From an uncultured Verrucomicrobiota bacterium (GTDB lineage Bacteria; Verrucomicrobiota; Kiritimatiellia; PWTM01): a stretch of DNA of 64,000 bases. Position 1 is the first letter of the stretch, and every line of letters begins with the position of its first letter. Positions 19,870 to 46,403 of this stretch are shown here, piece after piece. Under the pieces are notes generated by a model, which saw only the letters and a list, made by a program, of their open reading frames with translations, had not been told where the DNA came from and did not search any database. Where the stretch lies: contig CAYODK010000001.1 in the NCBI GenBank assembly GCA_964402695.1, forward strand, positions 12,702 to 76,701, written 5' to 3'. Both the position numbers and the translations under genes were made by a program.

Positions 19870-20649
19870 ATGAACGGGACGACGCGGGTGGAGCAGGCGT
19901 ACCGGGGGATCCAGCAGCAGATCCTCGACGGGCGGCTGGAGCCCGGGGCGGTGATCTCGGAGGCGGAGCTGGCGCGGAAGCTGCGGATGAGCCGCACGCC
20001 CGTCGGCGAGGCGATCCGCCAGCTCGCCCAGGAGGGCCTGCTGGTGCAGGTGCCGCGCTTCGGCACGATGGTGCGCCGCATCGACCGTCGCGATCTCGTC
20101 GAGCTCTACGAGATGCGCCAGGCGCTCGAGAGCTTCGCCGCCGCGCGCGCCGCGGAGCGGATCGCGCCGGACGCCCTCGCGAGGCTCCAGGTGCTGTCGG
20201 ACGAGATGGAGCGCGTGGCTGACGACGCGCGGGGCGCCGGGCTGGACGCCCTCGATGCGGACCGGCTCCACCGCTTCCTCGCCGCGGACTACGCCTTCCA
20301 CATGCAGATCCTCGAAGCCGCGGGGAACCGCCAGATCATGCAGGCCGTGCAGGGCGGCCGGACGATCTCACGTATCTTCCGCATGCGCCGCCAGCGGCAC
20401 GACCGCGCGATCGTCGACGGCGCCCACCGGCACCACGAGCGGATCCTGCAGGCCCTCCGCAAGCATGACGCCGAGGCGGCGCGCATCCGCATGGCCGGGC
20501 ACATCGCGGACAGCCTGAGGGAGACGCTCGCCGATTTCGACCGCCTGGACGCCGTCGCGCCGCCCGCGGCGGCCGACGACCTGCCGCGCGAGGTTGCCGC
20601 GGCGCTGGACCGGCTGGAGCGAGAGGCGGCGGCGGAACCAAGACCATGA
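19870..20649 (+). CDS. GntR-family transcriptional regulator (FadR/FCD subfamily)
   Basis: wHTH SEAELARKLRMSRTPVGEAIRQLAQEGLL plus an all-helical FCD C-terminal domain. Confidence 0.85.
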   Translation: MNGTTRVEQAYRGIQQQILDGRLEPGAVISEAELARKLRMSRTPVGEAIRQLAQEGLLVQVPRFGTMVRRIDRRDLVELYEMRQALESFAAARAAERIAPDALARLQVLSDEMERVADDARGAGLDALDADRLHRFLAADYAFHMQILEAAGNRQIMQAVQGGRTISRIFRMRRQRHDRAIVDGAHRHHERILQALRKHDAEAARIRMAGHIADSLRETLADFDRLDAVAPPAAADDLPREVAAALDRLEREAAAEPRP

Positions 20650-22103
20650 GCGCGCCGCACCGTCCGTCCGCCGCGCTGGGAGCCTCGATCGGGGGCGTCC
20701 TGGCCGCCGGGGGCCTCGCCGCGGGCGGCGGGCCCGAGGCGGCGCACCCGGCCGCGGGACGCTGGGTCGAGCGGCAGGTCACCTCCGCGCCGCATGGCCA
20801 CATGCTGACGAACCTCGGCTGCTGGTCGGGGGACGGGAGGTGGCTCGTCTACGATGTGCGCGACGAGGACTCCGTCTTCCGCGGCACCCGCATCGAGGCC
20901 GTCGACGTCGCCACGGGCGACGTGCGCGTCCTTTTCGATTCGTCACCCGGCGCCTGCGGCGTGGTGACATGCGATCCCGGCTCCGATGCCTGCGTCTTCA
21001 TCCTCGGCCCGGAACCCCCGTCGCCCGACTGGACCTACGGCCCCGCCCGCCGCCGCGGCGCGATCGTCCGCGCCTCGCGCCCCGGCGCGGCCGCCGGTCT
21101 CGACGCACGATGCCTTGCGCCGCCGTTCGTCCCCGGCGCGCTGCGCGGCGGCACGCACCTTCACACGTTCAGCCCGGACGGGGCGGGCTGGGTCGCGAGC
21201 ACCTACGAGGACCACGTCCTCGACCTCGCCGCCGGCGCGGCGGGCGCCGAGCGCAACCAGCGCAACGTCGCCGTCAGCGTGCCGGCCGGGCCTGTCGCCG
21301 TGCCGCGCTCCCATCCGCAGAACCGCGACGGCTCGCACTTCACGGTGCTGGTCACGCGGACCCACGACGAGCCGCGCCCGGGGTCGGACGAAATCGCCCG
21401 CGCCTGCGAGGAGGGCTGGGTCGGAACGGCGGGCTACGTCCGCCCCGACGGCACCCGCCAGCTCCGCGCCATCGCATTCCAGGGCACGGTGACGGCCGCC
21501 GACGGACGCCCGGTGGCCGAGGCGTTCATCGTCGACCTTCCCGAGGACTCCCGCGCGATGACGGTGGCCGGCGGCGGTCCGATCGAGGGGACCGCGACGA
21601 CACGTCCCCGCCCGCCGCGCGGCGTCGTCCAGCGCCGCCTCACGCGGACGGCGGAACTGGCGAACCCCGGCCTCCAGGGCCCGCGCCACTGGCTGCGCGG
21701 TTCGCCCGACGGTTCGCGGATCGCGATGCTGCGGAAGGACGCGGACGGCATCGCGCAGATCTGGACGGTGTCGCCCTGCGCCGGCCTGCCCGGCGGCCCC
21801 GCGCCGGAGCCGGTTCAGTTGACGCGCAATCCGTGGCCGGTCGCATCGTCCTTCTCGTGGTCCCCCGACGGCCGCTGGATCGCGCTCGTCGCGGACAACA
21901 GCGTGATGGCGGCCGATGCGGCGACCGGCGCCACGCTGCGCCTCACGCCGCGGACGGAGGACGCCGCCGCGCCGCAGCCGTTCGCGTGCGTGGTTTCGCC
22001 CGACGGCCGGTCGGTCGCGTACCTGCGCGCGGTGAAGGCGCCCGGCGGCCGCGCCTTGGCCCAGATCTTCGTGAGTTCGTCCGCCCCGGAGGGAACCCGC
22101 TGA
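20646..22103 (+). CDS. TolB-like/PD40 beta-propeller protein (DUF3748 / oligogalacturonide-lyase-like)
   Basis: ATGA overlap with the regulator stop; repeated SPDG blades (FSPDGAGWVAS, GSPDGSRIAML, SWSPDGRWIALVA, VSPDGRSVAYL). Confidence 0.5.
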   Translation: MSAPHRPSAALGASIGGVLAAGGLAAGGGPEAAHPAAGRWVERQVTSAPHGHMLTNLGCWSGDGRWLVYDVRDEDSVFRGTRIEAVDVATGDVRVLFDSSPGACGVVTCDPGSDACVFILGPEPPSPDWTYGPARRRGAIVRASRPGAAAGLDARCLAPPFVPGALRGGTHLHTFSPDGAGWVASTYEDHVLDLAAGAAGAERNQRNVAVSVPAGPVAVPRSHPQNRDGSHFTVLVTRTHDEPRPGSDEIARACEEGWVGTAGYVRPDGTRQLRAIAFQGTVTAADGRPVAEAFIVDLPEDSRAMTVAGGGPIEGTATTRPRPPRGVVQRRLTRTAELANPGLQGPRHWLRGSPDGSRIAMLRKDADGIAQIWTVSPCAGLPGGPAPEPVQLTRNPWPVASSFSWSPDGRWIALVADNSVMAADAATGATLRLTPRTEDAAAPQPFACVVSPDGRSVAYLRAVKAPGGRALAQIFVSSSAPEGTR

Positions 22104-22104
22104 C

Positions 22105-23691
22105 ATGAGCCACCATCTCCACGTCCTCGACTGGGCCGTGCTCGCCGCGTACTTCGGCGGCACGATGCTGCTCGGCTTCCTGCTCGGCCGGAAAAGCCGG
22201 TCGACCGAGGGCTTCACGGCCGGCGGGCGGTCCGTACCCGGCTGGGTGTGCGGCCTGTCGATCTTCGCGACGTTCCTCAGCAGCATCAGCTTCCTCGCGA
22301 TTCCGGGCGGGGCCTACGCGACGAACTGGAACTGGTTCGTCTTCTCGCTGTCGCTGCCGCTGGCGACCTGGCTGGCGGTCCGGTTCTTCATGCCCTACTA
22401 CCGCCGCAGCGGCGAGGTGTCGGCCTATGCGCTGCTCGAGCACCGCTTCGGGCCGTGGGCCCGGATCTACGCGGGCGTGTTCTACCTGCTGACCCAGGTC
22501 GCGCGGATGGGGACGGTGACCTACCTGATGGCACTCTCGGTCTCCGTCCTCGCCGGCTGGGACATCCGCGCGGTGATCTGGGTGACCGGCGTCACGGTCA
22601 CGGCCTATGCCTTCGTCGGCGGGATCGTCGCGGTGATCTGGACCGACGCGCTCCAGGCCTTCGTCCTGATCGCCGGGGCGGTCGTGGCGCTGCTGGTCAT
22701 GATGTTCGGCCTGCCCGGGGGGCCGGCGCAGGTGTTCGCGATCGCCGCCGAGCACGGCAAGTTCTCGCTCGGCAGCTTCAGCCTGAAGGAGTGGGCCGCG
22801 CCGACGTTCTGGGTCGTGCTGCTGCACGGGCTCGCGATCAACCTGCAGAACTTCGGCATCGACCAGAACTACGTGCAGCGCTACATCGTGTCATCCAACG
22901 ACCGCGAGGCCCGCCGCAGCGTGTGGCTCGGCGGCCTGCTCTACGTGCCCGTCAGCGCGCTGCTGCTGCTGATCGGCACGTCGCTCTACGCGTGGTACCA
23001 GACGCATCCCGACGACCTCGCCGAGGTGCGCGCGGCGGTCGCGGAGCACAAGGTCGCGGCGACGGGTGTCGCCGCGACGGCGCCGGACTACGCGGAACGT
23101 CTGGCCGCGACCACGGCGGGGCTGACGGACAAGGACATCGGGGATCGCGCATTCCCGTACTTCATCGGGAAGCGTCTGCCGGCGGGCATCGTCGGGCTCG
23201 TGATCGCGGCGATCCTCGCGGCGGGCATGAGCACGATCGCCACCTCGCTGAACTCCTCGGCGACGCTCGTGATGACCGACTACTACAAGCGCTACATCCG
23301 CCGCGATGCGACCGACCGCCAGTGCATGCGGGTGCTTCACGGGTCGACGATCGTCTGGGGGGTCATCGGCACCGGCGTGGCCCTGCTGATGATCAACATC
23401 CAGGGCGCGCTGGACACGTGGTGGAAGCTCGCCAGCATCTTCAGCGGGGGCATGGGCGGGCTCTTCCTCCTCGGGATGATCGGCCGTCGAACGGGGAACC
23501 GCGCCGCCGCCGCCGCCGTGACGCTCGGCGTGCTGGTCATCGCGTGGATGACGCTTTCGCAGACGCCGATCTGGCCGGCCTCGCTGGCGCAGTTCAGGAG
23601 CGGCATCCACGGCTTCATGACGGTCGTCGTCGGCACCGCCGTGATCCTGCTCGCGGGCCTCCTGTTCGGCGGGACGAAGAGGGCGAAATGA
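22105..23691 (+). CDS. sodium:solute symporter (SSS family), probable sialic acid/sugar transporter
   Basis: 13-14 predicted TM helices, SSS-family spacing, GGR...FLSSISFLAIPG N-terminal signature. Confidence 0.8.
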   Translation: MSHHLHVLDWAVLAAYFGGTMLLGFLLGRKSRSTEGFTAGGRSVPGWVCGLSIFATFLSSISFLAIPGGAYATNWNWFVFSLSLPLATWLAVRFFMPYYRRSGEVSAYALLEHRFGPWARIYAGVFYLLTQVARMGTVTYLMALSVSVLAGWDIRAVIWVTGVTVTAYAFVGGIVAVIWTDALQAFVLIAGAVVALLVMMFGLPGGPAQVFAIAAEHGKFSLGSFSLKEWAAPTFWVVLLHGLAINLQNFGIDQNYVQRYIVSSNDREARRSVWLGGLLYVPVSALLLLIGTSLYAWYQTHPDDLAEVRAAVAEHKVAATGVAATAPDYAERLAATTAGLTDKDIGDRAFPYFIGKRLPAGIVGLVIAAILAAGMSTIATSLNSSATLVMTDYYKRYIRRDATDRQCMRVLHGSTIVWGVIGTGVALLMINIQGALDTWWKLASIFSGGMGGLFLLGMIGRRTGNRAAAAAVTLGVLVIAWMTLSQTPIWPASLAQFRSGIHGFMTVVVGTAVILLAGLLFGGTKRAK

Positions 23692-23726: not shown

Positions 23727-23802
23727 GCCGCGATCACCGATCGCGGCTACAGAAGGCGATGGGGTGAAACGGGCCGCTGCAGCCGCGACGGATCGTCGCG
23801 GC
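23727..23802. promoter_or_regulatory. two copies of palindrome GCCGCGA(C/T)(C/G)-N3-(G/C)(G/A)TCGCGGC upstream of FAD oxidoreductase 1
   Basis: gccgcgatc-acc-gatcgcggc (23727-23747, followed by tacag) and gccgcgacg-gat-cgtcgcggc (23782-23802, preceded by ctgca). Confidence 0.55.
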
Positions 23803-23869
23803 AATGCGTACGGGGGCGCAGGCCGGCCGGGACCACCGGTCCCGGCTACAGCAGATGGGGGACGATGCC

Positions 23870-25240
23870 ATGAGACGCCGCGGATTCCTCCAAACCGCCG
23901 CCGGGGCGACCGCCTGGGTCGCGTCGGGTCGCCGCGCATCCGCCGCCGCTGCGCCCACCGCGCCGGAGATCGCGTGGACGCGCCGGATCCCGGTGCGCTA
24001 CGAGGCGGACGTCGCGGTGATCGGCGGCGGCATGGCGGGGGTCGGCGCGGCCTGCGCGGCGGCGACGTCGGGTGCGAAGGTGATCCTCGTCGAGCGCTTC
24101 GCCGTCGCGGGCGGCATGCTGACGACCGGCGGCGTCGCCAACTTCTGCGGGCAGATGACGGGGCAGGGGGAGGTCTTCGACGAGATCCTCGCGGACCTCC
24201 GCGCGTGGAACGCCATCGGCCACGACCGCCGGGAGTCTGTGTTCCATCCCGAGGTCCTCGCCTTCGTCCTCCAGGAACTCCTGTTGCGGCGCGGCGTGAA
24301 GCTCCTGCTGCACGCGCGGTTCGCCGACGCGCGCGTCGACCGCGGCTGCATCACCGAGGCGGTGGTCTGTGGCAAGAGCGGTCCCGAGGCGCTGCGGGCG
24401 AGCCAGTTCATCGACTGCACCGGCGAGGCGGACGTCGCGCGGGCCGCCGGCTTCGCCGTGATGAAGGGGCGGCCGGAGGACGGCCTCCAGCTCCCGATGT
24501 CGATGATGTACTTCGTGCGGCACGTCCCGCCGGACGCTGCCGTGCCGGACCTGCCCGAGGGACGGTTGGACCGGATCGAGTCCGCGAAGGACCTGCCGAT
24601 GACCAGCATCTGGCCCGACGGCCCGGTCGGCAACGCGATCAAGATCAAGGTGCCGATGTTCGACTCGACGGACACGGAGAGCTTCACCGCCGGCGAGATC
24701 CAGGGCCGGCGCCGGATGATGCAGGTCATGGACTTCCACCGGCGCGTCCAGAAGCGCCCGTGGATGCTCGGCCACTGCTCGCCGGTCATCGGCATCCGCG
24801 AGGGCGCGCGGATCGCGGGCGACTACGTGCTGACGGTCGACGACCTCCGCGCCGGCCGCGCGTTCGACGACGCCGTCGCGCGCGGCACCTTCATGCTCGA
24901 CGGGCACAAGCCCGACGACGACAAGCGGACCTACATCCTGCCCGAGGACCAGCTCGCGGTGCCGCCGTACCAGATTCCGCTGCGGTGCCTCGTCGCGCGC
25001 GACGGAAAAAACCTCCTGATGGCCGGGCGGTGCATGTCCGCCGACCAGCTCGCGCTCTCCTCCGCCCGCGTCAGCACGACCTGCACGATGATGGGCCAGG
25101 CCGCCGGCATCGCCGCCGCGATGGCCGTGAAGAAGAACGGCTCCGTGCGGGACCTCGATCCGGCCGCGGTGCGGAAGATCGTCGAGGAACGCGGGGCCGA
25201 ACTTGCGGTCGGGAAGGCGAGGAAGGGTGGGACGACATGA
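23870..25240 (+). CDS. Tat-signal FAD-dependent oxidoreductase (FAD_oxidored/PF12831-like), paralogue 1
   Basis: MRRRGFLQTAAGATAWVASG (twin-Arg signal); DVAVIGGGMAGVGAACAAA (GxGxxG); three paralogues in this window share this architecture. Confidence 0.7.
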   Translation: MRRRGFLQTAAGATAWVASGRRASAAAAPTAPEIAWTRRIPVRYEADVAVIGGGMAGVGAACAAATSGAKVILVERFAVAGGMLTTGGVANFCGQMTGQGEVFDEILADLRAWNAIGHDRRESVFHPEVLAFVLQELLLRRGVKLLLHARFADARVDRGCITEAVVCGKSGPEALRASQFIDCTGEADVARAAGFAVMKGRPEDGLQLPMSMMYFVRHVPPDAAVPDLPEGRLDRIESAKDLPMTSIWPDGPVGNAIKIKVPMFDSTDTESFTAGEIQGRRRMMQVMDFHRRVQKRPWMLGHCSPVIGIREGARIAGDYVLTVDDLRAGRAFDDAVARGTFMLDGHKPDDDKRTYILPEDQLAVPPYQIPLRCLVARDGKNLLMAGRCMSADQLALSSARVSTTCTMMGQAAGIAAAMAVKKNGSVRDLDPAAVRKIVEERGAELAVGKARKGGTT

Positions 25241-25350
25241 ACCCCGAAACGCGGATCACGACGGATTGCACGGGTCGCACGGATGGGAGGGGCCGCCTCC
25301 AGAGGGCGCCATGCGGCGGTGCGGGTGGGCGGCGCCGAGGTTTCGTGCAC

Positions 25351-25513
25351 GGAAGTAGAGAAACTCCAAACTCCAAGGAAGTACGAAGAAAAGAAGGCCA
25401 AAGTCGGAGTGATTCCCGTGGGTACGTGCCCATCCAACCCGTGTTGCGGCCCCATCCTTCCCTACTTTCTCCTTTTCACTTCCTTGGAGTTTGGAGTTTC
25501 TTACTTTCCTTCC
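25351..25513. repeat. MITE-like element: ~45-bp imperfect inverted repeats with core GAAACTCCAAACTCCAAGGAAGT flanking ~58 bp
   Basis: Left arm ggaagtagagaaactccaaactccaaggaagt (25351-25382); right arm acttccttggagtttggagtttcttactttcc (25480-25511) is its reverse complement. Confidence 0.7.
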
Positions 25514-25530: not shown

Positions 25531-27351
25531 GTGCAATCCGTGGCCCTCCTCTCCGCGGCGCTGCTGACCCTGTGCGCGGCGGGGCCGGGCGGCGTCCGGG
25601 CGGCGGAGATCGAGACCGACGTCTGCGTGTTCGGCGGAACCTCGGGCGGCGTCGCGGCGGGCGTGCAGGCGGCGCGGATGGGGAAGCGCGTCGTTCTCGC
25701 GGAACCCGGAAAGCACCTCGGCGGCATGACGTCGGGCGGTCTGAGCGCGGTCGACATCGGCGATCCGCGGACGGTCGGCGGGATCGCGCGGGAGTACTTC
25801 ACGCGGCTCGTCGCGTCGTACGGCAAGACGCTCGAGTGGGACCGCCCCTTCGTCGCCGCGGGCGGCGGCCCGGCGACCGGCGGGGCCTATGCGATCGAGC
25901 CCCGCGTGGCCGAGCGCGTTTTCGACGGCATGGCCCGCGAGGCCGGCGTGCGGGTCCTCCGCGGCGCCCGGCTCGCCTCGGTGCGCAAGGACGGCGCGCG
26001 GATCCGCGGGATCGCGATGGAGGACGGCACGGTCGTCCGCGCGAAGGTCTTCATCGACGCCACCTACGAGGGCGACCTGATGGCCGGGGCCGGCGTTTCC
26101 TTCACGCTGCTGCGCGAAGGCAACGCGAAGTACGGCGAGACCTACAACGGGATCCACTACAGCGACAAGTACCTTGCGCGCACGAACCACCTGAAGCCCG
26201 GTCCCCACGGCCGCGTGCCCGGCGGGCAGGGCGTGTGGGACCGCGACTTCCCGCTCGATCCGTACGTTGTGCCCGGAAATCCGGCGAGCGGGCTGCTGCC
26301 GCTGCTGAACCCCGGCGAACCCGGGACGCCCGGCGAGCCCGCCCCCGGCGTGCAGGCCTACTGCTACCGTCTGTGCCTGACGACCGATCCGACGAACCGG
26401 ATGCCGGTCGCCCCGCCCGCGGGCTACGATCCGAAGCGCTACGAGCTGGTCGCCCGCTTCATCGCCGCGTGCCTCGCGATCGGCGACGACATGGACCTGC
26501 GCTGGTTCTCCAAGCACGACCCGCTGCCGAACGCGAAGTGGGACTTCAACACCGCGACCTTCGGCGCCAACCTGCCCGGCGCGAGCTGGGAGTGGCCCGA
26601 GGCCTCCTACGCGCGCCGCGCGGAGATCGCGAAGGCGCACGAGGACCACATGCGCGGCCTGCTGCACTTCCTCGCGACCGACCCCCGCGTGCCGGCGAAG
26701 GTGCGCGACGACGTGAAGCGCTTCGGCCTGCCGCGCGACGAGTTTCCCGATACCGGCGGCTGGCCCCACCAGCTCTACGTCCGCGAGGCGCGCCGGATGG
26801 TCTCCGACCTCGTGATGACCGAGCACCACACGTTCGGCCGCGCCGTCGCGCCGGACTCCGTAGGCCTCGGCTCCTACGGCACGGACACGCACGAGATCCG
26901 CCGCATCGTGAAGGACGGCGTCGTGCAGCGCGAGGGCAAGACCGCGACCGGCCGCGACGGCGCGCCGCCGTATCCGGTCGGCTACGGCGCGATCGTGCCG
27001 AAGACCGCGGAGTGCGACAACCTGCTCGTCACGTTCGCGCTCGCCGCCAGCCACACCGCCTTCAGCAGCATCCGCATGGAGCCGGTGCTGATGATCCTCA
27101 GCCAGTCCGCCGCGACCGCGGCGTGCCTGGCGATCGACGACGGCGTCGCGGTGCAGAAGGTCGACCGGCACCGCCTGCGCGAGCGGTTGCTGAAGGACGG
27201 ACAGATTCTCGATTGGGCCGCTGTAGCCGCGACCGCCGGTCGCGGCAATGCGCCCGTGGACGCAAGCCGGCCGGGGTCGACGCCCCCGGCTCCAGAAGAT
27301 GGCGGGCGCGGCATGGGAGACTTTGCGAAGAACGGAAGGACGGGACCATGA
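25531..27351 (+). CDS. secreted FAD-dependent oxidoreductase (PF12831-like), paralogue 2
   Basis: In-frame GTG start (VQSVALLSAALLTLCAAG signal peptide) just after the MITE; [19 protein letters not shown] Rossmann motif; this is the downstream half of track ORF 23764..27351. Confidence 0.65.
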   Translation: MQSVALLSAALLTLCAAGPGGVRAAEIETDVCVFGGTSGGVAAGVQAARMGKRVVLAEPGKHLGGMTSGGLSAVDIGDPRTVGGIAREYFTRLVASYGKTLEWDRPFVAAGGGPATGGAYAIEPRVAERVFDGMAREAGVRVLRGARLASVRKDGARIRGIAMEDGTVVRAKVFIDATYEGDLMAGAGVSFTLLREGNAKYGETYNGIHYSDKYLARTNHLKPGPHGRVPGGQGVWDRDFPLDPYVVPGNPASGLLPLLNPGEPGTPGEPAPGVQAYCYRLCLTTDPTNRMPVAPPAGYDPKRYELVARFIAACLAIGDDMDLRWFSKHDPLPNAKWDFNTATFGANLPGASWEWPEASYARRAEIAKAHEDHMRGLLHFLATDPRVPAKVRDDVKRFGLPRDEFPDTGGWPHQLYVREARRMVSDLVMTEHHTFGRAVAPDSVGLGSYGTDTHEIRRIVKDGVVQREGKTATGRDGAPPYPVGYGAIVPKTAECDNLLVTFALAASHTAFSSIRMEPVLMILSQSAATAACLAIDDGVAVQKVDRHRLRERLLKDGQILDWAAVAATAGRGNAPVDASRPGSTPPAPEDGGRGMGDFAKNGRTGP

Positions 27352-35663: not shown

Positions 35664-35750
35664 GCGCATGAGGACGGCGGCCCCCCCTATCCCATACGAT
35701 CCGGTTCGGACCCGGGATGGGACGGGGTGTGAATGCGAGTCGTCCAGCAT

Positions 35751-35940: not shown

Positions 35941-36013
35941 GGCTCGACGTCGACGGGTTCCCGTGAGAGACGATCAACCGCATTGCTCCGGCCCCGCTTC
36001 ACGAGGCGGGGTG

Positions 36014-36060
36014 TCCAACCCTTGGAAGCCTGCGGCTTCCGGTCTTCCAAACCTTGGAAG
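36014..36060. promoter_or_regulatory. tandem CTTCCAA-N3-TTGGAAG palindromes 32 bp apart, immediately upstream of the 36070 gene
   Basis: gtccaacccttggaag (36014-36028) and cttccaaaccttggaag (36044-36060). Confidence 0.5.
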
Positions 36061-36069
36061 TTCCAGGTC

Positions 36070-38460: not shown

Positions 38461-39948
38461 ATGCGCTGTCCGATCCGTGTGATCCGTGGAATCCGTAGCG
38501 CAGCCTGCCGCTCGGCGGCAGTCGCCCTGGCCCTTGCGGCTGCGGCCGCGGCGGCGGAGCGGCCGGGTATCGTCCTCATCCTGGCCGACGACCTCGCGTG
38601 GAGCGACCCCGCGTGCTACGGCAGCCGCTGGCACGACACGCCGAACCTGGACCGGCTGGCGCGGGAGGGCATGCGCTTCACCCAGGCCTACGCGGCCGCG
38701 CCGATCTGCTCGGCCTCGCGCGCGGCGATCCTCACGGGCCGCTCGCCGGCGCGGCTCGGCTTCGAGTTCGTCACGAAGGCCGGGCCGGGGCGACAGGACC
38801 TCGGGCAGCCGCTTCTCCCGCCGCCGTTCACGCTGGACCTCCCGCTGGAGGAGGTGACGCTCGGCGAGATGCTCGCCGGAACGGGATACGCGACCGGCTT
38901 CTTCGGCAAGTGGCACGTCAGCCGCCACCATGGCGGCTACCTCGGATGGTCCCCGACGCACGGCCCCCTCCGGCAGGGGTTCGCCGCGGGCGACGCGGAC
39001 TTCGGCTGTCATCCGTACGGCTACCGGAAGGGCGCGGACGCGGACCGCGCCGAGGTGCCGGACGGCGCCTTCCCGCCGGACGCGCTCACGGACCGGGCGG
39101 TCGCGTTCCTGCGCGGCGCGAAGAGACCCTTCTTCCTGTACCTGTCGCACTACTTCGTCCACGACCCGGTCCACACGCGCTGCCGCTGGCTGGCGGACAC
39201 GGTCCGGCGGCGGCTGCCGGCCGGCGCGTCCGCGGCGCGTGCGGACTACGGCGCGATGGTGGAGACGCTCGACCACCTCGTCGGCCGCGTGATGGACGCG
39301 CTGGACCGGGCGGGCCTTGCGAAGGACACGCTCGTCGTGTTCACGTCCGACAACGGCGGCCACCCGGTCTACGCCGCAAACGGACCGCTGCGCGGCAGCA
39401 AGTGGAACCTCTACGAGGGCGGCATCCGGGTCCCGCTGATCGTCCGGTGGCCCGGCCGCGTCGCCGCGGGCTCGACGAACGACTCGGTCGTCACCGGGTG
39501 CGACTTCTTCGCCACGTTCGCGGAGCTGGCCGGGGCGGCGGCGGACGGCATCGCGCGCGACGGGACGAGCCTCGCGCCGCTGCTGCGCGACGCCGCGGCG
39601 CGGCTGCCGGAGCGGCCGCGGGTCTGGCACTTCCCGTACTACCATCCTGAGACGGGGTTCGACGCGGCGCCGGCCCGCATCGGCATCGATGATTTCGTCA
39701 CCAGCCGGACGCGGCCGCATTCAGCGGTGCGTCTCGGCAACTGGAAGCTGGTGCATTTCCACGAGAACGACCGCGACGAGCTGTACAACCTGCGTGCCGA
39801 TCCGTCGGAGCAGGAAGACCTCGCGCAGGCGGAGCCCGTTCGCCGTCGCGAGCTGCGGGCCCTTCTGGACGAGCAGCTCAAGGGAGCGTCCGCCCGCCTG
39901 CCCGAACCGAACCCGGACGCCCCGTCCACCCAGCGGAGGAAGCCATGA
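38461..39948 (+). CDS. sulfatase
   Basis: MRCPIRVIRGIRSAACRSAAVALALAAAAAAA signal; ILADDLAWSD; CSASRAAILTG (C-x-A-x-R FGly motif); FFGKWH; FTSDNGG. Confidence 0.8.
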   Translation: MRCPIRVIRGIRSAACRSAAVALALAAAAAAAERPGIVLILADDLAWSDPACYGSRWHDTPNLDRLAREGMRFTQAYAAAPICSASRAAILTGRSPARLGFEFVTKAGPGRQDLGQPLLPPPFTLDLPLEEVTLGEMLAGTGYATGFFGKWHVSRHHGGYLGWSPTHGPLRQGFAAGDADFGCHPYGYRKGADADRAEVPDGAFPPDALTDRAVAFLRGAKRPFFLYLSHYFVHDPVHTRCRWLADTVRRRLPAGASAARADYGAMVETLDHLVGRVMDALDRAGLAKDTLVVFTSDNGGHPVYAANGPLRGSKWNLYEGGIRVPLIVRWPGRVAAGSTNDSVVTGCDFFATFAELAGAAADGIARDGTSLAPLLRDAAARLPERPRVWHFPYYHPETGFDAAPARIGIDDFVTSRTRPHSAVRLGNWKLVHFHENDRDELYNLRADPSEQEDLAQAEPVRRRELRALLDEQLKGASARLPEPNPDAPSTQRRKP

Positions 39949-41447
39949 TCCCGAATCCCACGGTTCACCGATCCCGACGGCGCGCCCGCCGTGCCGGTCC
40001 TGCGGCCGGCCTGGCCCTGCTCGCCTGGGTCACCGCGGCGTCCGCGGCGGGGCCGGATCGTCCGAACGTGCTGTTCCTTGCGGCGGACGACCTCCGCAAC
40101 GACCTGGGGTGCTACGGGCATCCGATGGTGAGGACGCCGAACCTCGATGCGCTCGCCGCGCGCGGCGTGCTGTTCGAGCGCGCCTACTGCCAGCAGGCGC
40201 TGTGCAATCCGTCGCGCGCCTCGCTGATGACCGGGCGCCGGCCGGACACGCTGCGGCTGTGGAACCTGACGAAGCACTTCCGCGACGAGATCCCGGACGT
40301 CGTGACGATGCCACAGCATTTCCGCGCCGCCGGCTACTTCGCGCAGAACGTCGGCAAGATCTTCCACAACTTCCGCCAGGAGATTCAGGGCGACCCGGCC
40401 TCGTGGAACGTGCCGGCCGTGATGCACTACGGCAATCACAACGACGACCGGCCGGCCGTGGACGGCGAGCCGCCGCCCAACCTGGCGAAGGATCCGAAAT
40501 GCCAGTGCTACGACGTGCCCGACGAGGCCTACTACGATGGGCGCGTCGCGAAGCTGGCGATCGAGGCGTTGCGCGAGCGCGCCGCGAAGCCGGAGCCGTT
40601 CTTCCTCGCGGTCGGCTTCTGGAAGCCCCACTCGCCGTTCAACGCGCCGAAGCGCTACTGGGACCTCTACCGCCGCGAGGACGTCCCGATGCCCGCCAAC
40701 GCGGAGTGGCCGGCGGACGCCCCGCGCATCGCGTGGCACAACAGCCGCGAGATCCTCGGCGAGCCGGCGCGGACGCTGACGCCGGAGGCCGTCCGCGAGA
40801 TCCGCCACGGCTATCTGGCGAACATCAGCTTCCTCGACGCGCAGGTCGGCAGGGTGCTCGGCGAACTGGACCGGCTCGGGCTGGCGGACCGGACCATCGT
40901 GGTGTTCTGGTCCGACCACGGCTACCACCTCGGCGAGCAGACGCTCTGGGCCAAGACGTCCAACTTCGAGCTCGACGCGCGCGTGCCGCTGATCGTCGCG
41001 GCGCCGGGCCTCCGCGGCGGGGTGCGGACGCGGGCGCTCGCGGAACTGCTCGACCTCTATCCGACGCTGGCCGAGCTGGCAGGGTTGCCGCGGCCCGCGG
41101 GGGTGGATGGCGTGAGCCTCGTTCCGGTCCTGAAGGACCCGGCGGCGTCGGTCAAGCCGGCGGTGCTGACGCAGCATCCGCGGCCTGCGTATTACAAGGA
41201 GGCGCCGGAGGCGATGGGCTACTCGCTCCGCACCGACCGTCACCGCTACGTCGAGTGGCGCGACGGGACGAACGGCGCGGTCGTTGCGCGCGAGCTGTAC
41301 GACCACCGGGCGGACCCGGCGGAAACCCGCAACGTCGCGGGCGATCCCGCCAACGCGGTGGCGATCGCCGGGGCCGCGGAGTTGTTGAAGACATTCAAGC
41401 CGGTCGCGGGAACGCTCCCGCGGCGGGCGCGAAAGGGCGCGCAATGA
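39945..41447 (+). CDS. sulfatase (iduronate-2-sulfatase-like)
   Basis: ATGA overlap; LFLAADDLRNDLGCYG; CNPSRASLMTG (C-x-P-S-R); WSDHGYHLGE. Confidence 0.85.
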   Translation: MIPNPTVHRSRRRARRAGPAAGLALLAWVTAASAAGPDRPNVLFLAADDLRNDLGCYGHPMVRTPNLDALAARGVLFERAYCQQALCNPSRASLMTGRRPDTLRLWNLTKHFRDEIPDVVTMPQHFRAAGYFAQNVGKIFHNFRQEIQGDPASWNVPAVMHYGNHNDDRPAVDGEPPPNLAKDPKCQCYDVPDEAYYDGRVAKLAIEALRERAAKPEPFFLAVGFWKPHSPFNAPKRYWDLYRREDVPMPANAEWPADAPRIAWHNSREILGEPARTLTPEAVREIRHGYLANISFLDAQVGRVLGELDRLGLADRTIVVFWSDHGYHLGEQTLWAKTSNFELDARVPLIVAAPGLRGGVRTRALAELLDLYPTLAELAGLPRPAGVDGVSLVPVLKDPAASVKPAVLTQHPRPAYYKEAPEAMGYSLRTDRHRYVEWRDGTNGAVVARELYDHRADPAETRNVAGDPANAVAIAGAAELLKTFKPVAGTLPRRARKGAQ

Positions 41448-42364
41448 AGACACCGCTGGCGGGCATCATCCCGCCGATCGTCACGCCGCTGAAGGACCGC
41501 GACACGCTCGATGCGGAAGGCTTCGAACGCCTCGTCGAGCGCGAGATTGCAGGCAGGGTCCACGGCCTGTTCATCCTCGGCACGACGGGCGAGGGGCCCG
41601 GCCTGGGCTACCGTCTGCGCCGGGAGGTCGTCGACCACGCGTGCCGCCTTGTGAATGGCCGCGTGCCGGTTCTCGTCGGCATCACCGACACGGCGTTCGT
41701 CGAGTCCGTCGCCCTGGCCCGCCACGCCGCCGCCGCCGGGGCGGACGGAGTCGTCGCGGCGCCGCCCTACTACATGCCCGAAGGCCAGCCCGAGCTGGTC
41801 GAGTACCTGCAACACCTCGTGCCGGAGCTGCCGCTTCCGCTGTACCTCTACAACATGCCGATGATGACCAAGGTCAGCTTCGCGCCCGAGACGGTGAAGC
41901 AGGCGATGGATATCGCGGGCATCGCGGGCATCAAGGACAGCTCCGGCGACATGGACTACTTCCGCACCGTCTGCGCGATCGCGAAGGAGCGGCGGCCGGA
42001 GTGGTCGCTGCTGATGGGGTCGGAGATCCTGCTCGCGCCGGCGGTCGCGTGCGGCGCGCACGGGGGCGTCTGCGGCGGGGCCAACGTGGCGCCACGGGTC
42101 TTCGTCGATCTCTACGAGGCGGCGGTCTCGGGCGATGCGGACCGGATCAAGGCCGCGGAGGCGCGGGCCGAGGCGCTGTCGCGGATCTACCGCGTCGGCA
42201 GCCACCCGTCGACCGGCATCAAGGGCATCAAGTGCGCGCTCTCGCTGCTCGGCGTGTGCGACGACTTCATGGCCGAGCCATTCCGCCGCTTCCGGGCCCC
42301 GGAGCGGGAGAAGGTGGCGCGCATCCTGGCGGAACTGGGGCTTGGTGCCGCCGGGCACGTGTAA
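41444..42364 (+). CDS. DHDPS-family aldolase, probable N-acetylneuraminate lyase
   Basis: ATGA overlap; GLFILGTTGEGPGL (GTTGE motif); Schiff-base Lys context GIKDSSGD; embedded among sialidases. Confidence 0.75.
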   Translation: MKTPLAGIIPPIVTPLKDRDTLDAEGFERLVEREIAGRVHGLFILGTTGEGPGLGYRLRREVVDHACRLVNGRVPVLVGITDTAFVESVALARHAAAAGADGVVAAPPYYMPEGQPELVEYLQHLVPELPLPLYLYNMPMMTKVSFAPETVKQAMDIAGIAGIKDSSGDMDYFRTVCAIAKERRPEWSLLMGSEILLAPAVACGAHGGVCGGANVAPRVFVDLYEAAVSGDADRIKAAEARAEALSRIYRVGSHPSTGIKGIKCALSLLGVCDDFMAEPFRRFRAPEREKVARILAELGLGAAGHV

Positions 42365-42403: not shown

Positions 42404-42405
42404 AG

Positions 42406-44196
42406 ATGCGGGAGGATCAGGATGTGAAGACGTGGTCAGGGTTGATCGGATCGGCGGCCCTGCTGCTGGCGGCAAGCACGGCGTCTGCACAGACCGTTGC
42501 GTCGCGGTGGAATGTCGCGGCGGCCGGGGCCGTGGGCGACGGGCAGGCGGACGGCACCGCGATCTTCCAGCGCCTGCTGGACGAGGCCGGGAAGGCGGGC
42601 GGCGGAGTCGTCGAGGTCCCGGCGGGGCGGTTCCGGATCGCGGGCCACCTTGCGATCCCGGCGAACGTGACGTTGCAGGGCATCTACCGCACGGCGCCGC
42701 TGACGCCGACGGCGCGGCACGGCGGGGGTGAAGTCGGCGGCTCGGTCCTGCTCGCCTTCGAGGGCCGCGGCTCGACGAACGGCGCGCCGTTCATCGACCT
42801 GGCGGGGCACAACGCGGTGGTCGCAGGGCTGGTGGTCCGCTATCCCGAGTGGAGGCAGACCGACGTGCCGCCGGTGCCGTATCCGCCGTGCGTGGCGTCG
42901 GACGACACGGAGAACACCGGCGTCCTCGAATGCCTGCTGCTGAATCCGTACGAGGCGATCCGGCTTGTGCGGGCGCACCGGCATCTCGTTCGCAATGTGA
43001 CGGGCTATCCGTCGTGGCGCGGCCTCTACGTCGACATGTGCGGCGACATCGGCCGCGTGGAGAACGTCCACTTCTGGCCGTTCGGCGTCCACTACAAGCC
43101 GGACGATCCCTACTGCCGGTGGGTGAACACGCAAGGCACCGCCTTCGAGTTCGCGCGGACGGACTGGGAGTACGTGCTCAACACGTTCTGCTTCGGCTAC
43201 GGCGCGGGCTACAGGTTTTCCGAATCAAAGGACGGCTGCGCCAACGGCAACTTCGTCGGGCTCGGCGCGGATTCGTGCGAGCGGGCGGTGGTGGTCGAGC
43301 AGGCGCAGCCGCCGGGGCTGCTGATCTCCAACGGCGAGTTCGTCGGGCGGTGGAGCGGCACCGAGTCGGTGTGCGTCGACATCGGTCCGGACGTCGGCGG
43401 GAAGGTCAGCCTCGTCAACTGCGCGTTCTGGGGGCCGATCGACCGGTGCGTGCGGATGCGCAGCACGAACGGCCAGTTCACGGCCAGCGCGTGCCATTTC
43501 GTGAACTGGGACAACCGCGGCGCGGGCTCGGCGGCCGTGCAGATCGACGCAGGCAGGGCGATCGTGCAGGGCTGCACGTTCATGGAGGACGGCCTCCACG
43601 TCGAGGTCGGCCCGGCGGTGGCCTCGGCGATCCTGACGGCGAACCAGGCGGCCGGCGGCTTCCGCGTCGAGAACGCAGCCGGCGCGCGGACGCAGGCGGC
43701 GCTGAACGAGGCGGACCCGGTGCAGTGGACCGACGCGGCGCGGGCGCACTACCGGCTCGCCGTCGGCGTCTCCGGCGACGGGCGCTACCTGCGGGGCTGG
43801 CACGGCGCCGAGCGCGGTCCGCCGCCGTATCGCTGGAGCATGGCGCGGTCACAGTTGGTCCTGCCGGCGCCGGTGGGGAAGGCGTGCACGGTCGAACTGG
43901 GACTTTCCGTGCCGGCGCATGCGGTGGGGCCGGAGTCCGGGTTGTACCTTGGCGACGCGCGGCTTGCGCCGCTGCTCGCCGGCACGAATCTCACGGCGCG
44001 GCTGCCGGCGACGACGGAGGATCGTTACCGGCTTGAGTTGCGCTGCGCCGGGTGGGTGCCGAAGAAGTTGAACCCCGCGTCGCAGGACGACCGCGAACTG
44101 GGCGTGCAACTGCGGTCCATCACGCTGCGCGCGGACGGCGCGGGACCGGCGGTGTTCGATGCGAACACGGGGCGGCCGCAGGAGAATAGCCAATAG
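42406..44196 (+). CDS. right-handed beta-helix (pectate-lyase-fold) glycoside hydrolase
   Basis: Signal peptide, then AAGAVGDGQADGTAIFQRLLDEAGKAGGGVVEVPAGRFRI (Pectate_lyase_3-type N-terminus) and repeated beta-helix rungs; an alternative GTG start at 42424 sits 8 nt after GGAGGA. Confidence 0.65.
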   Translation: MREDQDVKTWSGLIGSAALLLAASTASAQTVASRWNVAAAGAVGDGQADGTAIFQRLLDEAGKAGGGVVEVPAGRFRIAGHLAIPANVTLQGIYRTAPLTPTARHGGGEVGGSVLLAFEGRGSTNGAPFIDLAGHNAVVAGLVVRYPEWRQTDVPPVPYPPCVASDDTENTGVLECLLLNPYEAIRLVRAHRHLVRNVTGYPSWRGLYVDMCGDIGRVENVHFWPFGVHYKPDDPYCRWVNTQGTAFEFARTDWEYVLNTFCFGYGAGYRFSESKDGCANGNFVGLGADSCERAVVVEQAQPPGLLISNGEFVGRWSGTESVCVDIGPDVGGKVSLVNCAFWGPIDRCVRMRSTNGQFTASACHFVNWDNRGAGSAAVQIDAGRAIVQGCTFMEDGLHVEVGPAVASAILTANQAAGGFRVENAAGARTQAALNEADPVQWTDAARAHYRLAVGVSGDGRYLRGWHGAERGPPPYRWSMARSQLVLPAPVGKACTVELGLSVPAHAVGPESGLYLGDARLAPLLAGTNLTARLPATTEDRYRLELRCAGWVPKKLNPASQDDRELGVQLRSITLRADGAGPAVFDANTGRPQENSQ

Positions 44197-44255
44197 CCGA
44201 TCGCCAATAGCCGATGGCCGATTGCCAAGGGCGAAAGGCGGAGCCGGGAGGTCCG

Positions 44256-45323
44256 ATGAAGCGGATTGTTGCGGGGTGTGTGCTGGTGGCGGCGATGGGT
44301 GCCGCGGGGGTGGAGACGGAGAACGTCACCGTCTTCAAGGAGCCGGGGCGCTACGGCGGATGGCCGGCGAACCACGGGATCTGGGGATGGGGGGACGAGA
44401 TCGTCGTCGGGTTCACGGCGGCGTGGTACAAGCCGGCGACGAACGACCACGCGATCGACCGCGCGAAGGCGTCTGAGGTGTGGCAGGCGCGGAGCCTCGA
44501 CGGCGGGCGGACGTGGTCCGTCGAGAAGCCGCCCGAGCTTGCGAAGCCGGCTCGTCCGGCCGACCTCCCGCCGCTGCCCGGCCCGCTCGACTTCACCGCG
44601 CCGGACCAGGCGTTGATGTTCCGTTTCGGCAGCCTGCATGTCGGGCCGTCGTGGCTGTACGTCTCCGGCGACCGCTGCCGCACGTGGCGTGGCCCGTACG
44701 CGTTCCGCGCCGAAGGCATCGACAAGGTCGCCGCGCGCACCGATGTCGTCGTGCTCGGTCCGCGCGAGGCGCTGATGTTCGCCAGCGCCGCGAAGGCGGA
44801 CAACAAGGAGGGGCGCGCCTTCTGCGCGCGCACGGCGGACGGCGGCCTGACATGGAAGCTCGCCGGCCTCATCGGACCGGTTCCCGAGGGCTACACCATC
44901 ATGCCGTCCAGCGCGCGGCTGGCGGACGGCTCGCTCCTGACGACGATCCGTCACGTCGACAAGGGGCGGCCCGCGACAATCGACGCGTATCGCAGCGCCG
45001 ACGGCGGCGCAACGTGGGAATCGCTCGGCGAGGCCGCGCACGACAACGGCGGCAACCCGCCGAGCCTGGTGACGCTGAAGGACGGCCGCCTGTGTGTGAC
45101 CTACGGCTGCCGCCGCAAGCCGTTCGGCATCCGGGCACGGATCAGCGCCGACGGCGGGCGCTCGTGGGGGCCGGAGATCCTGCTGCGCGACGACGGGCTC
45201 ACCGGCGATCTAGGCTATTCGCGGAGCATCGTCCGCCCCGACGGCCGCGTGGTCACCGTCTACTACTTCAACGGCCCCCGCGACGAGGACCGCGCCATCG
45301 AGGCGACGATCTGGACGCCGTGA
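44256..45323 (+). CDS. BNR-repeat sialidase-like protein
   Basis: MKRIVAGCVLVAAMGAAG signal; Asp-boxes SLDGGRTWS, TADGGLTWK, SADGGATWE, SADGGRSWG. Confidence 0.7.
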   Translation: MKRIVAGCVLVAAMGAAGVETENVTVFKEPGRYGGWPANHGIWGWGDEIVVGFTAAWYKPATNDHAIDRAKASEVWQARSLDGGRTWSVEKPPELAKPARPADLPPLPGPLDFTAPDQALMFRFGSLHVGPSWLYVSGDRCRTWRGPYAFRAEGIDKVAARTDVVVLGPREALMFASAAKADNKEGRAFCARTADGGLTWKLAGLIGPVPEGYTIMPSSARLADGSLLTTIRHVDKGRPATIDAYRSADGGATWESLGEAAHDNGGNPPSLVTLKDGRLCVTYGCRRKPFGIRARISADGGRSWGPEILLRDDGLTGDLGYSRSIVRPDGRVVTVYYFNGPRDEDRAIEATIWTP

Positions 45324-45329
45324 TTCCGG

Positions 45330-46403
45330 CTACTGCGCCGCGATTTTGCTGCGGTAGGACTCGACCTCCCAGTTGTCGATGAAGTCGCGGGCGCGGTCGG
45401 CCAGGTAATGGATCCCTCCGAAGGCGGAGGCGAGCTGCTCGACGAGGGCGCCGTCCTGCGCGAACTCCAGCGCCAGCGCCGCGTTCTTCGCGTTCGTGCC
45501 GACGCCCCACACCGCGCCGCCGGCCGCGACGACCTTCGGCGCGTAGCCATGCTTCGCCTTGTACCGGGCGACCGCGTTCGGCGTGGGCGCCGTGCGCAGC
45601 GGGTAGGACTTCGAATAGACGATGTGGTCCGGGCTGATCGGTCCGGCCGGGACGGGGATCGCCCCGCCCGCGGCAACGCCGGCCGCGTCGGGCCCGAGCG
45701 AGGCCTGGAGCTGCGCCGTCATGGCCGCAACGTCCGCGGCGGCCGGCGGCGGGCCCATCTTGAGGATCGTGGATACGCGGGCCTTCCGGTACTCGGCCGC
45801 CAGCGCGGTCATGACGCGGGCGTAGGCGTTGCGCACGCCGGCGGCGGTGTCGGCCGCGACGAAGACGCCGTGGTTCTCGAGGAAGAGCAGCTCCGGCTCG
45901 CGGCCGTCGCGCGCGACGCACGCCTTCAGCGCCTTGCGGACCTCCATGCACAGCGTGTAGCCGGGGTCGACGTAGGGCATCCACAGCGCATCGGGGAACA
46001 GGCGGCGGCACGCGGCCTCGCCGTCACGCCCGCAGGTCATGCCGTTGACGAGGGCGGGGTGGGTGTGGACGACGTAGCGTGCGGCGAACGTGTCGTGCAG
46101 CGGAGCCTCGACGGACGGACGCCCCTTCGAGGCCGGCCGCACGGCGGCGGCCATCATGTCCTTCACCAGCGCCTCTCGCGCGGCGGGGGCGGAGGGAGTC
46201 GGCACGGCGTAGAGGCGGGCCAGCTTCGCGCGGTCCATCGCGACCATCGTCTGCGCCGTCAGCCCGGCCAGCGTCGTGCCGGAGGGCTTCACCCACAGCG
46301 TATCCGCGTTCTTCGCCGACGTGTTCCCGCCGCCGCCCTTCACGTAGTCCGGCGTTCCGAACTCGTGCGACAGCCCGATGATCGTGTCCAACAGCCGCGT
46401 CAT
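45330..46403 (-). CDS. class II aldolase/adducin-family protein
   Basis: Internal start MTRLLDTIIGLSHEFGTPDYVKGGGGNTSAK...LWVKPSGT: class II aldolase N-terminal signature. Confidence 0.65.
   Translation of the reverse strand: MTRLLDTIIGLSHEFGTPDYVKGGGGNTSAKNADTLWVKPSGTTLAGLTAQTMVAMDRAKLARLYAVPTPSAPAAREALVKDMMAAAVRPASKGRPSVEAPLHDTFAARYVVHTHPALVNGMTCGRDGEAACRRLFPDALWMPYVDPGYTLCMEVRKALKACVARDGREPELLFLENHGVFVAADTAAGVRNAYARVMTALAAEYRKARVSTILKMGPPPAAADVAAMTAQLQASLGPDAAGVAAGGAIPVPAGPISPDHIVYSKSYPLRTAPTPNAVARYKAKHGYAPKVVAAGGAVWGVGTNAKNAALALEFAQDGALVEQLASAFGGIHYLADRARDFIDNWEVESYRSKIAAQ

Follow-up and report, generated by a model that had tools for sequence, protein, structure and literature searches.

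Three PF12831-type flavoproteins in a putative glycan-utilisation locus of an uncultured Kiritimatiellia bacterium

What do three exported flavoproteins do in the midst of sialidase-like and sulfatase genes? The question is raised by a locus at positions 19870-46403 of a 64,000-nucleotide stretch of DNA (the window) from an uncultured Verrucomicrobiota bacterium of the class Kiritimatiellia (GenBank assembly GCA_964402695.1, contig CAYODK010000001.1, positions 12,702 to 76,701). Three of its genes, g04, g05 and g09, encode PF12831-type proteins with a predicted flavin adenine dinucleotide (FAD) fold, for which an initial annotation of the window had proposed a periplasmic oxidation of sialic-acid derivatives or sulfated sugars. 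We favour, with a probability of roughly 40%, the reading that this is an operon-like glycan-utilisation locus in which the three flavoproteins serve as exported accessory carbohydrate-active enzymes using O2-independent flavin chemistry.

All three proteins match PF12831 over their full length (307, 327 and 353 bits for g04, g05 and g09, respectively, against a gathering cut-off of 27). Their starts at 23870, 25531 and 34278 were correctly placed in the initial annotation, with E-values of 1e-91 to 1e-105 and export signals present. Pairwise identity among them is 27-34%, and their sequences place them in three old, separate subfamilies, each its own orthologous group. The paralogy once offered as evidence for a common step is that of anciently separated families, not of recent paralogues. 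Homologues of the g04 type are 67-91% identical and single-domain, and those of the g05 type are 74-94% identical and come mainly from Verrucomicrobia. The g09 type (48-91% identity) occurs in at least 563 species-representative genomes from Verrucomicrobiota, Lentisphaerae, Planctomycetota, Hydrogenedentota, Armatimonadota, Kiritimatiellia and some Bacteroidota. Each homologue search returned from 1,200 to nearly 8,000 relatives among at most 8,000 scored candidates.

The canonical GGGxAG FAD motif is conserved in the g04 and g09 families, and flavin binding is predicted from it. A twin-arginine translocation (Tat) motif, which is motif-level evidence of export, is present in 91 of 106 g04-type and at least 56 of 105 g09-type sequences and in 4 of 92 of the g05 type, whose members carry Sec or lipoprotein-type signals instead of Tat and keep a variant GGTSGG motif in 110 of 111 homologues. 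In g09, the residues R323-E324-x-R326-R327, D358/H360 and H412/R419 are invariant. PDB and NCBIfam sequence searches with the flavoproteins gave matches to the Rossmann motif only, and we found no publication characterising these proteins in literature searches on PF12831, on sialidases, sulfatases, polysaccharide-utilisation loci and BNR proteins, on nonulosonic-acid catabolism, and on omics of the Planctomycetes-Verrucomicrobia-Chlamydiae (PVC) group. As far as these tools tell, no characterised or solved homologue exists, and the role of the proteins is undescribed, as first proposed. An annotation of Planctomycetes PF12831 proteins as 'xanthan lyase' could not be substantiated and was dropped. 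Structural modelling had also been suggested; models of g09 and g05 were obtained (the AlphaFold2 model of g09 is good, with a pLDDT of 84.6), and their PDB matches are at the level of the FAD domain only.

The connection of these families to glycan degradation is seen in gene order and in domain fusions. The closest relatives of the locus lie in metagenome-assembled genomes labelled Verrucomicrobiota or Lentisphaerae (below, L-numbers denote related genomic stretches and P-numbers, P0122 and P0164, individual g05 homologues). The whole arrangement is kept at ~90% amino-acid identity in L001, L006 and L007, and partial synteny at 60-76% identity extends to five more metagenome-assembled genomes (L008, L010, L011, L014 and L030), which retain the g09 type, the propellers of mid-g06 and g08, g11, the DHDPS-family gene, a sulfatase and often the g04 type. 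Since the arrangement is conserved at ~90% and, in part, at 60-76% identity, the clustering is not due to chance. The g04 and g09 types also co-occur in several genomes.

Fusions are found in the g05 type, in which 20 of the 120 closest listed homologues (~17%) are multi-domain. Eleven carry a C-terminal alpha/beta-hydrolase esterase with an intact nucleophile elbow (GGSAGG), two a GH33 sialidase domain with an intact YRIP motif, three a beta-helix, and one each an N-terminal SGNH domain (GDSI), a lectin-like domain, PF16227 and an unassigned extension. The GH33 domain is N-terminal in P0164 and C-terminal in P0122, and these opposite orders make the two fusions independent. In Roseimicrobium, a gene for a flavoprotein-esterase fusion lies near a NanM-type mutarotase gene and a second PF12831 gene. 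BNR_2 propellers adjoin the g04 or g09 types in Limihaloglobus, in a Sedimentisphaerales contig and in a groundwater Verrucomicrobia genome, and one g04-type gene stands beside PL8/PL14 lyases and a sulfatase. Synteny, the GH33 and esterase fusions and the NanM neighbour uphold the part of the earlier proposal that ties the flavoproteins to glycan degradation, and leave aside its specificity for sialic acid. The functional tie to the glycan locus is real, and the link to sialoglycan and sulfoglycan degradation is strongest for the g05 type.

That g05 behaves as a module of carbohydrate-active enzymes (CAZymes), fused at either end to catalytic domains, would also suit a non-redox role, in which the FAD-type fold would be a scaffold that binds glycans or supports hydrolytic or lyase reactions with neither net nor transient flavin redox, especially in this Sec-exported type. 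The strict conservation of GGTSGG, the near absence of Tat from the g05 type and the occurrence of the families in anaerobes agree with such a role. The g04 and g09 proteins are harder to accommodate: they retain GxGxxG and the acidic residue at the end of strand beta-2, and their Tat signals point to the pathway by which proteins that have taken up a cofactor during cytoplasmic folding are usually exported. A core conserved at 65-80% across phyla is, moreover, typical of enzymes, and we regard the non-redox role as unlikely.

The remainder of the locus frames what the flavoproteins might act on. Because the window has ~70% G+C, raw lists of open reading frames (ORFs) are crowded with spurious frames; genes were therefore called from a frame plot of third-position GC (GC3) with inspection of start codons, and domains were assigned with Pfam scans supplemented by NCBIfam and PDB sequence searches. 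The locus comprises 16 co-directional genes (19870-45323), mostly overlapping or separated by short gaps, and one convergent gene (45330-46403).

19870-20649, + strand: g01, GntR/FCD transcription regulator (Pfam GntR 4e-15, FCD 6e-20; GC3 frame plot; its stop overlaps the g02 start)
20646-22103, + strand: g02, DUF3748 and PD40 beta-propeller (Pfam DUF3748 9e-43)
22105-23691, + strand: g03, sodium:solute symporter (SSS; Pfam SSF 1e-40; PDB 5NV9, SiaT, E=1.6e-63)
23727-23846, no strand: REP/BIME-like hairpin triplet upstream of g04 (23727/23782/23826; alternating orientation)
23870-25240, + strand: g04, PF12831 flavoprotein type 1 (Pfam 2.5e-91; Tat signal RRRGFL; FAD motif GGGMAG)
25350-25506, no strand: inverted pair of the low-GC repeat CTTCCTTGGAGTTTGGAGTTTC between g04 and g05 (repeat search)
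25531-27351, + strand: g05, PF12831 flavoprotein type 2, 606 aa (Pfam 3e-97; Sec/lipoprotein-like signal; variant motif GGTSGG)
27348-31958, + strand: g06, exported 1,536-aa BNR/FG-GAP protein (Pfam; GH33 at residues 30-375, BNR_2 at 383-707, FG-GAP/VCBS at ~880-1536)
32046-32870, + strand: g07, PD-(D/E)XK_3 nuclease-like protein (Pfam 4e-16)
32867-34120, + strand: g08, BNR_2 propeller, GH143-like (Pfam BNR_2 2e-27 and Beta-prop_BT_1020; PDB 5MQR E=4.4e-10)
34144-34263, no strand: second REP/BIME-like hairpin triplet, upstream of g09 (34144/34199/34243; alternating orientation)
34278-35663, + strand: g09, PF12831 flavoprotein type 3 (Pfam 4e-105; Tat signal NRRNAIKGL; motif GGGPAG)
~36000-37041 (start approximate), + strand: g10, secreted protein (no Pfam or NCBIfam match; conserved in L001/L006)
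37038-38348, + strand: g11, divergent BNR-like propeller (weak BNR_2; two Asp-boxes)
38461-39948, + strand: g12, S1-type sulfatase (Pfam Sulfatase 3e-57)
39945-41447, + strand: g13, S1-type sulfatase (Pfam Sulfatase 3.5e-50)
41444-42364, + strand: g14, pyruvate aldolase/lyase of the DHDPS/NAL superfamily (Pfam DHDPS 1.5e-53; PDB 4XKY 9e-102)
42406-44196, + strand: g15, exported right-handed beta-helix protein (weak GH28/epimerase-like N-terminus)
44256-45323, + strand: g16, BNR_2 propeller related to uncharacterised Dfer_1899 (Pfam BNR_2 4e-18; PDB 5HX0 6e-20)
45330-46403, - strand: g17, convergent class II aldolase, rhamnulose-1-phosphate-aldolase-domain-like (Pfam Aldolase_II 2e-16; NCBIfam)

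Most of the gene list in the initial annotation is borne out by Pfam and GC3, including the 1,536-aa FG-GAP/BNR protein at 27348-31958; g07 and g10 had been overlooked. Its count of three sulfatases drops to two in the span (g12 and g13), the third lying outside on the minus strand at 12368-14104. The flanks consist of housekeeping genes (a thioredoxin reductase, a PIN toxin, an H+-pyrophosphatase, and genes of Cys/Met metabolism and sulfate assimilation), so the boundaries first drawn are about right. Several of the less familiar members recur in relatives: orthologues of g02 lie near DHDPS and g11 in L004 and L017, g11 is kept beside DHDPS or DUF3748 in distant relatives (L004, L008, L014 and L070), and g17 occupies the same position in L001. 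The periphery turns over quickly. In L001, an additional 479-aa gene with no Pfam match (L001:12458-13897) lies between the g10 and g11 orthologues, the g12 sulfatase is missing, and g15 and g16 are reduced to C-terminal remnants (L001:17900-18722, compared with 42406-45323 in the window).

How far does a sialic-acid theme hold? Of the five sialidase/BNR proteins initially annotated, one contains a true GH33 domain, and the other four BNR_2 propeller domains are of a different kind. A bona fide GH33 domain spans residues 30-375 of g06, with YRIP at residue 42 and five Asp-boxes; it matches the PDB sialidases 1EUR, 4FJ6 and 4BBW at E~1e-47, and the rest of g06 does not. The RIP motif was not found in the second domain of g06 or in g08, g11 and g16, and neither the second domain of g06 nor g11 has a PDB match better than E~0.03. 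The closest protein to g16 is Dfer_1899, a structural-genomics protein, and its match to 1EUR reaches only 1e-5. The closest PDB relative of g08, by a partial, low-identity match, is the GH143 domain of BT1020 (5MQR). In work on rhamnogalacturonan-II (RG-II), that domain is reported to hydrolyse the sugar Dha; the match to the BT1020 propeller suggests another ulosonic-acid glycosidase beside GH33.

Among solved structures, the sialic-acid transporter SiaT (5NV9) is the nearest to g03, to which NCBIfam gives no equivalog-level family assignment. The lyase g14, labelled NanA-like in the initial annotation, is not demonstrably NanA: it scores 82-98 bits, compared with curated cut-offs of 281-382 for the NanA models, and also falls below the DapA cut-off, and its best PDB match is 4XKY, a Bacteroides DHDPS-family protein, followed by YagE/DapA. 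Neither NanK and NanE nor the alternative AGE and RokA route is encoded by the 17 genes of the locus or in its annotated flanks; these enzymes may be encoded elsewhere in the genome. The GH33 domain with its RIP motif, the SiaT-like symporter, the FCD-type GntR regulator, the DHDPS/NAL-family lyase and the sulfatases together support a glycan-utilisation operon with a sialic/ulosonic-acid theme. The safest description is of a locus harvesting 2-keto-3-deoxy acid sugars, of the sialic-acid family and perhaps other ulosonic acids, from sulfated glycans.

Is the chemistry of the flavoproteins then confined to sialic acid, and does it use O2? For 80 g09-type loci, we recorded in an unbiased census the Pfam domains of the two flanking genes on either side (287 genes in total). 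BNR_2 neighbours account for 12 genes, all on the upstream side and in the nearest clade only, and a universal pairing of the flavoprotein with BNR_2 was rejected, as these neighbours are confined to the clade of at least 70% identity plus a few distant cases. Other neighbours include GH94, GH43, GH95, GH29, GH2, GH106, GH78, GH127, GH130 and apiosidase-like proteins, fucosidase, rhamnosidase, sulfatases, AraC regulators and unrelated genes. Orthologues of g04 and g09 at 50-70% identity are frequent in Sedimentisphaerales, Brocadiaceae, termite-gut and anaerobic-digester bins and Limihaloglobus sulfuriphilus. Sedimentisphaerales and Brocadiaceae are strictly anaerobic lineages, and the presence of many g09-type orthologues there argues against an O2-consuming oxidase. 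Within the window, genes for a reductive activator of corrinoid proteins (RACo) and a B12-binding protein (4184-6827, minus strand) suggest that this organism has an anaerobic corrinoid methyltransferase system.

These data bear directly on the original proposal, namely O2-using periplasmic oxidases that perform a dedicated step on sialic-acid derivatives or sulfated sugars. It draws on the FAD-binding fold and the export signals, on the association with GH33, esterases and NanM, and on the precedent of flavin glycoside 3-oxidases (PMC10646112). Many g05-type carriers, moreover, are Verrucomicrobia such as Prosthecobacter, Roseimicrobium and Chthoniobacteraceae. These groups are aerobic. Set against this are the g04 and g09 orthologues of anaerobic lineages, the RACo and corrinoid protein genes of the window, which are typical of anaerobes, and the g09-type contexts, in which orthologues stand beside varied CAZymes and, in many cases, in strict anaerobes. 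An oxidative step specific to sialic acid is not what these contexts indicate. We consider the proposal as a whole improbable; given the varied contexts, the anaerobic carriers and the RACo/corrinoid protein, the g04 and g09 types are unlikely to be O2-dependent oxidases specific to sialic acid.

Electrons could also leave by another route. The flavoproteins might be respiratory-type periplasmic sugar dehydrogenases that, like glucoside 3-dehydrogenase, use cytochrome c or quinone as electron acceptor and leave keto-products to separate hydrolases or lyases. In GCA_000172155.1 (L162:4250-7918), a 1,222-aa protein encoded immediately upstream of a g05-type gene combines a 3-keto-disaccharide hydrolase domain (DUF1080), a GDSL esterase, DUF7133, HEAT repeats and cytochrome c; nothing else hints at a partner for electron transfer. 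This order of genes and the Tat export of g04 and g09 speak for such dehydrogenases. The example is a single one, however, and no cytochrome-c, DUF1080 or TIM-barrel partner recurs among the 287 genes or appears in the window locus, which makes the dehydrogenase role a doubtful one. A keto-glycoside pathway with conserved partners was likewise not supported: the census shows none, the window locus contains none, and there is the one g05-type example.

The initial annotation had also cited a shared operator palindrome. The element is a hairpin of the form GCCGCGAC-N5-GTCGCGGC(TRCAG) that within the window occurs only in this locus. It resembles a repetitive extragenic palindrome or bacterial interspersed mosaic element (REP/BIME), forming the triplets upstream of g04 and g09, and a further pair (27226-27290) lies inside the 3' end of the g05 ORF, which it appears to have lengthened by ~40 codons. 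The stems carry compensatory changes (GCCGGGAC/GTCCCGGC and GCCGCGAT/ATCGCGGC). Hairpins stand at the same sites in relatives, and the family extends to L001, L002, L006, L007 and L088-L142. The exact pattern is found in 75 metagenomic stretches, among them contigs from Lake Tanganyika with ~70% GC and further repeats in common with the window; in Lake Tanganyika contigs of the same lineage its neighbours are sulfatase, GH32, RtcB, epimerase, LarC, TIM-barrel and FAD-linked-oxidase genes. The palindrome is thus better described as a dispersed REP/BIME-like repeat, lying beside unrelated genes and inside the end of an ORF. A regulon-specific operator of the GntR/NanR type was rejected in view of the alternating orientation, the compensatory stems and the unrelated neighbours, and a repeat of this kind says nothing on co-regulation. 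In L001 the same element lies inside an ORF that joins the flavoprotein to a GH33 domain. That this 952-aa ORF is an artefact of read-through across the hairpins was considered and is countered by the opposite-order fusion in P0164.

Other repeats are scattered through the locus. A second palindrome, GGGGCAGRCA-N4-TGYCTGCCCC, occurs in-frame within the FG-GAP region of g06 (30110, 30146, 30902 and 30954). The alignment of g06 to its L001 and L006 orthologues breaks exactly at these sites. In L006 the count is six, including intergenic copies, and coding sequence seems to tolerate REP-like elements. The gene g07 has a lower GC3 and is bracketed (31962-32931) by 49-nt inverted repeats of GACAACCGAATGG units, which form arrays with ~121-nt spacing in L130, L139 and L142. 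In L001, L002 and L007, the counterpart of g07 shares only 58% identity with it, compared with ~90% for flanking genes, and g07 is probably a mobile or fast-evolving selfish insertion and not a member of the pathway. The low-GC repeat CTTCCTTGGAGTTTGGAGTTTC recurs as an inverted pair at 35741-35949, upstream of g10, and as a single copy far upstream (2793-2814); the window holds five copies against none expected.

Repeats on this scale raise the prospect that the flavoprotein genes are hitch-hikers, brought in by chance or REP-mediated rearrangement, or that they have some other role, for example in periplasmic sulfatase maturation (formylglycine formation). REP-like elements flank g04 and g09 and sit inside the end of g05, and distant g09 contexts are heterogeneous, some neighbours being housekeeping genes. 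The independent fusions with GH33 and esterases, synteny kept down to 60-76% identity and the co-occurrence of the g04 and g09 types speak against this. As for maturation, a g13-like sulfatase is present at 15 of the 80 census loci, and proteins combining a formylglycine-generating enzyme (FGE) domain with BNR_2 adjoin the g04 and g09 types, while most loci have no nearby sulfatase. Of the alternatives discussed here, these seem to us the least probable. The FGE-sulfatase and BNR_2 fusion proteins in question (L004:3321-5333 and L164:9445-13517, adjoining g09- or g04-type genes) belong to the groundwater Verrucomicrobia genome and the Sedimentisphaerales contig.

We then compared the locus with known systems. 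Bacterial clusters for sialic-acid utilisation (Nan) comprise a GH33 sialidase, a sialate O-acetylesterase, a SiaT/NanT transporter, the NanA lyase, a NanR-type GntR regulator and the NanM mutarotase. Like them, the locus combines in one co-directional cluster a GH33 domain, recognised by its RIP motif and Asp-boxes, with an SSS transporter of SiaT-like type, an FCD-type GntR regulator and a DHDPS/NAL-family lyase, and NanM accompanies the g05-type fusion gene in Roseimicrobium. Unlike them, it lacks NanK, NanE, NagA and NagB, its lyase is not demonstrably NanA, and it adds four non-GH33 propeller domains, two sulfatases, a beta-helix protein and the three flavoproteins. To our knowledge, these additions are part of no described Nan pathway. 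With BT1020, the GH143 and GH142 protein of a Bacteroides RG-II locus (5MQR), the likeness is limited to its N-terminal propeller, matched by g08, which has no GH142 domain; the rest of the RG-II apparatus is absent from the locus. A further parallel is with the sulfatase-rich clusters of Planctomycetota, Verrucomicrobiota and Kiritimatiellota: like them, the locus belongs to a high-GC genome of PVC type, encodes S1 sulfatases for export, giant FG-GAP/BNR proteins and accessory enzymes with Tat signals, and forms an operon-like cluster without SusC/D. It differs in its conserved PF12831 component, present three times here, and we did not find these flavoproteins discussed in the searchable literature on such clusters. 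The system is a variant of known PVC-group glycan-utilisation loci.

For the flavoproteins themselves, known chemistry offers analogies. NanOx/YjhC (NanY), which acts on 2,7-anhydro-Neu5Ac, uses a tightly bound cofactor to oxidise C4 of sialic acid transiently, leading through a 4-keto-2,3-dehydro-Neu5Ac intermediate to elimination and hydration at C2 with regeneration of NAD (PMC7535918), and it is linked to sialic-acid transporters. It differs in being cytoplasmic and NAD-dependent and in having another Rossmann fold, with reported homology to short-chain dehydrogenases (PMC7535918); the window proteins are exported, of the PF12831 FAD type and without detectable homology to it, and their activity is predicted. 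GH4 and GH109 enzymes, the non-Koshland 3-keto pathway run by gut bacteria (bioRxiv 10.1101/2024.03.25.586180), glucoside 3-dehydrogenase and the flavin-dependent glycoside 3-oxidases (PMC10646112) likewise place exported or periplasmic cofactor-bound oxidoreductases in glycan loci, where oxidation adjacent to the scissile bond makes that bond labile. Those systems rely on NAD-dependent GH4/GH109 or Gfo/Idh/MocA proteins, or on GMC flavoproteins, with dedicated lyase or hydratase partners; the PF12831 proteins have a fold of another family, and our searches revealed no partner conserved with them.

In the pathway that we propose, exported enzymes would strip terminal 2-keto-3-deoxy acid sugars (of the sialic-acid family, possibly also Kdn, Kdo or Dha-like) from sulfated, probably O-acylated glycans. 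Judged by homology, the stripping set would comprise the GH33 domain, four sialidase-like propeller domains (one GH143-like), two sulfatases and the beta-helix protein. The released sugar would be imported by the SiaT-like symporter and split by the DHDPS/NAL-family lyase into pyruvate and an aldose, with the FCD-type GntR protein as the putative regulator of the genes. The bound flavin of the PF12831 proteins may dehydrogenate a sugar position, for example the C4-OH of an ulosonic acid or the C3-OH of another glycoside, giving a keto or enone intermediate in which the glycosidic bond or a substituent becomes labile; the hydride would then be given back or go to an acceptor other than oxygen. 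Such chemistry would parallel, in the periplasm and without O2, the reaction of NAD-dependent NanOx/YjhC and those of GH4/GH109 and the 3-keto-glycoside pathway. The g05 type may share its sialoglycan substrates with GH33 sialidases and acetyl-esterases, and the g04 and g09 types may act on a broader range of glycans. We favour such flavin-assisted dehydrogenation because of the anaerobic carriers, the lack of a fixed redox partner and Tat export with a pre-bound cofactor.

Several observations weigh against this assignment. The dinucleotide motif of g05 is non-canonical and its export is of the Sec type, which leaves its cofactor status uncertain, and its AlphaFold model is only moderately confident (pLDDT 66.6). 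Foldseek searches of the PDB return only generic two-domain FAD-fold proteins (TM 0.15-0.45), and PF12831-type folds stand outside the classical alcohol-oxidising flavoenzyme families (GMC and VAO). Beyond the nearest clade, g09-type neighbourhoods (48-68% identity) are heterogeneous with no fixed partner, and neither DUF1080 nor xylose-isomerase-like TIM barrels nor cytochrome c is enriched among the 287 flanking genes. On the side of the substrate, the lyase is not clearly NanA, and NanK and NanE are not in the locus. A bolder proposition is that the three subfamilies, above all the g05 type, form a new class of flavin-dependent carbohydrate-active enzymes that cleave or deprotect glycosides, such as modified sialosides or ulosonic-acid linkages, by transient O2-independent redox in thousands of PVC-group, Hydrogenedentota and Armatimonadota genomes. 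We offer it tentatively, as a possibility well short of even odds.

Bacteria of the PVC group rank among the main degraders of sulfated and acidic glycans in habitats from soils, lakes and oceans to digesters and guts, and much of their enzyme repertoire is unannotated; the question of real interest is the role of three abundant flavoprotein families. If these proteins are carbohydrate-active, they would represent an enzyme class missing from models of glycan turnover, might explain how modified sialic and ulosonic acids are released without O2, and could supply new tools for glycobiology. If they are ordinary dehydrogenases, the locus would still be a useful, well-delimited example of a sialoglycan/sulfoglycan operon outside the Bacteroidota.

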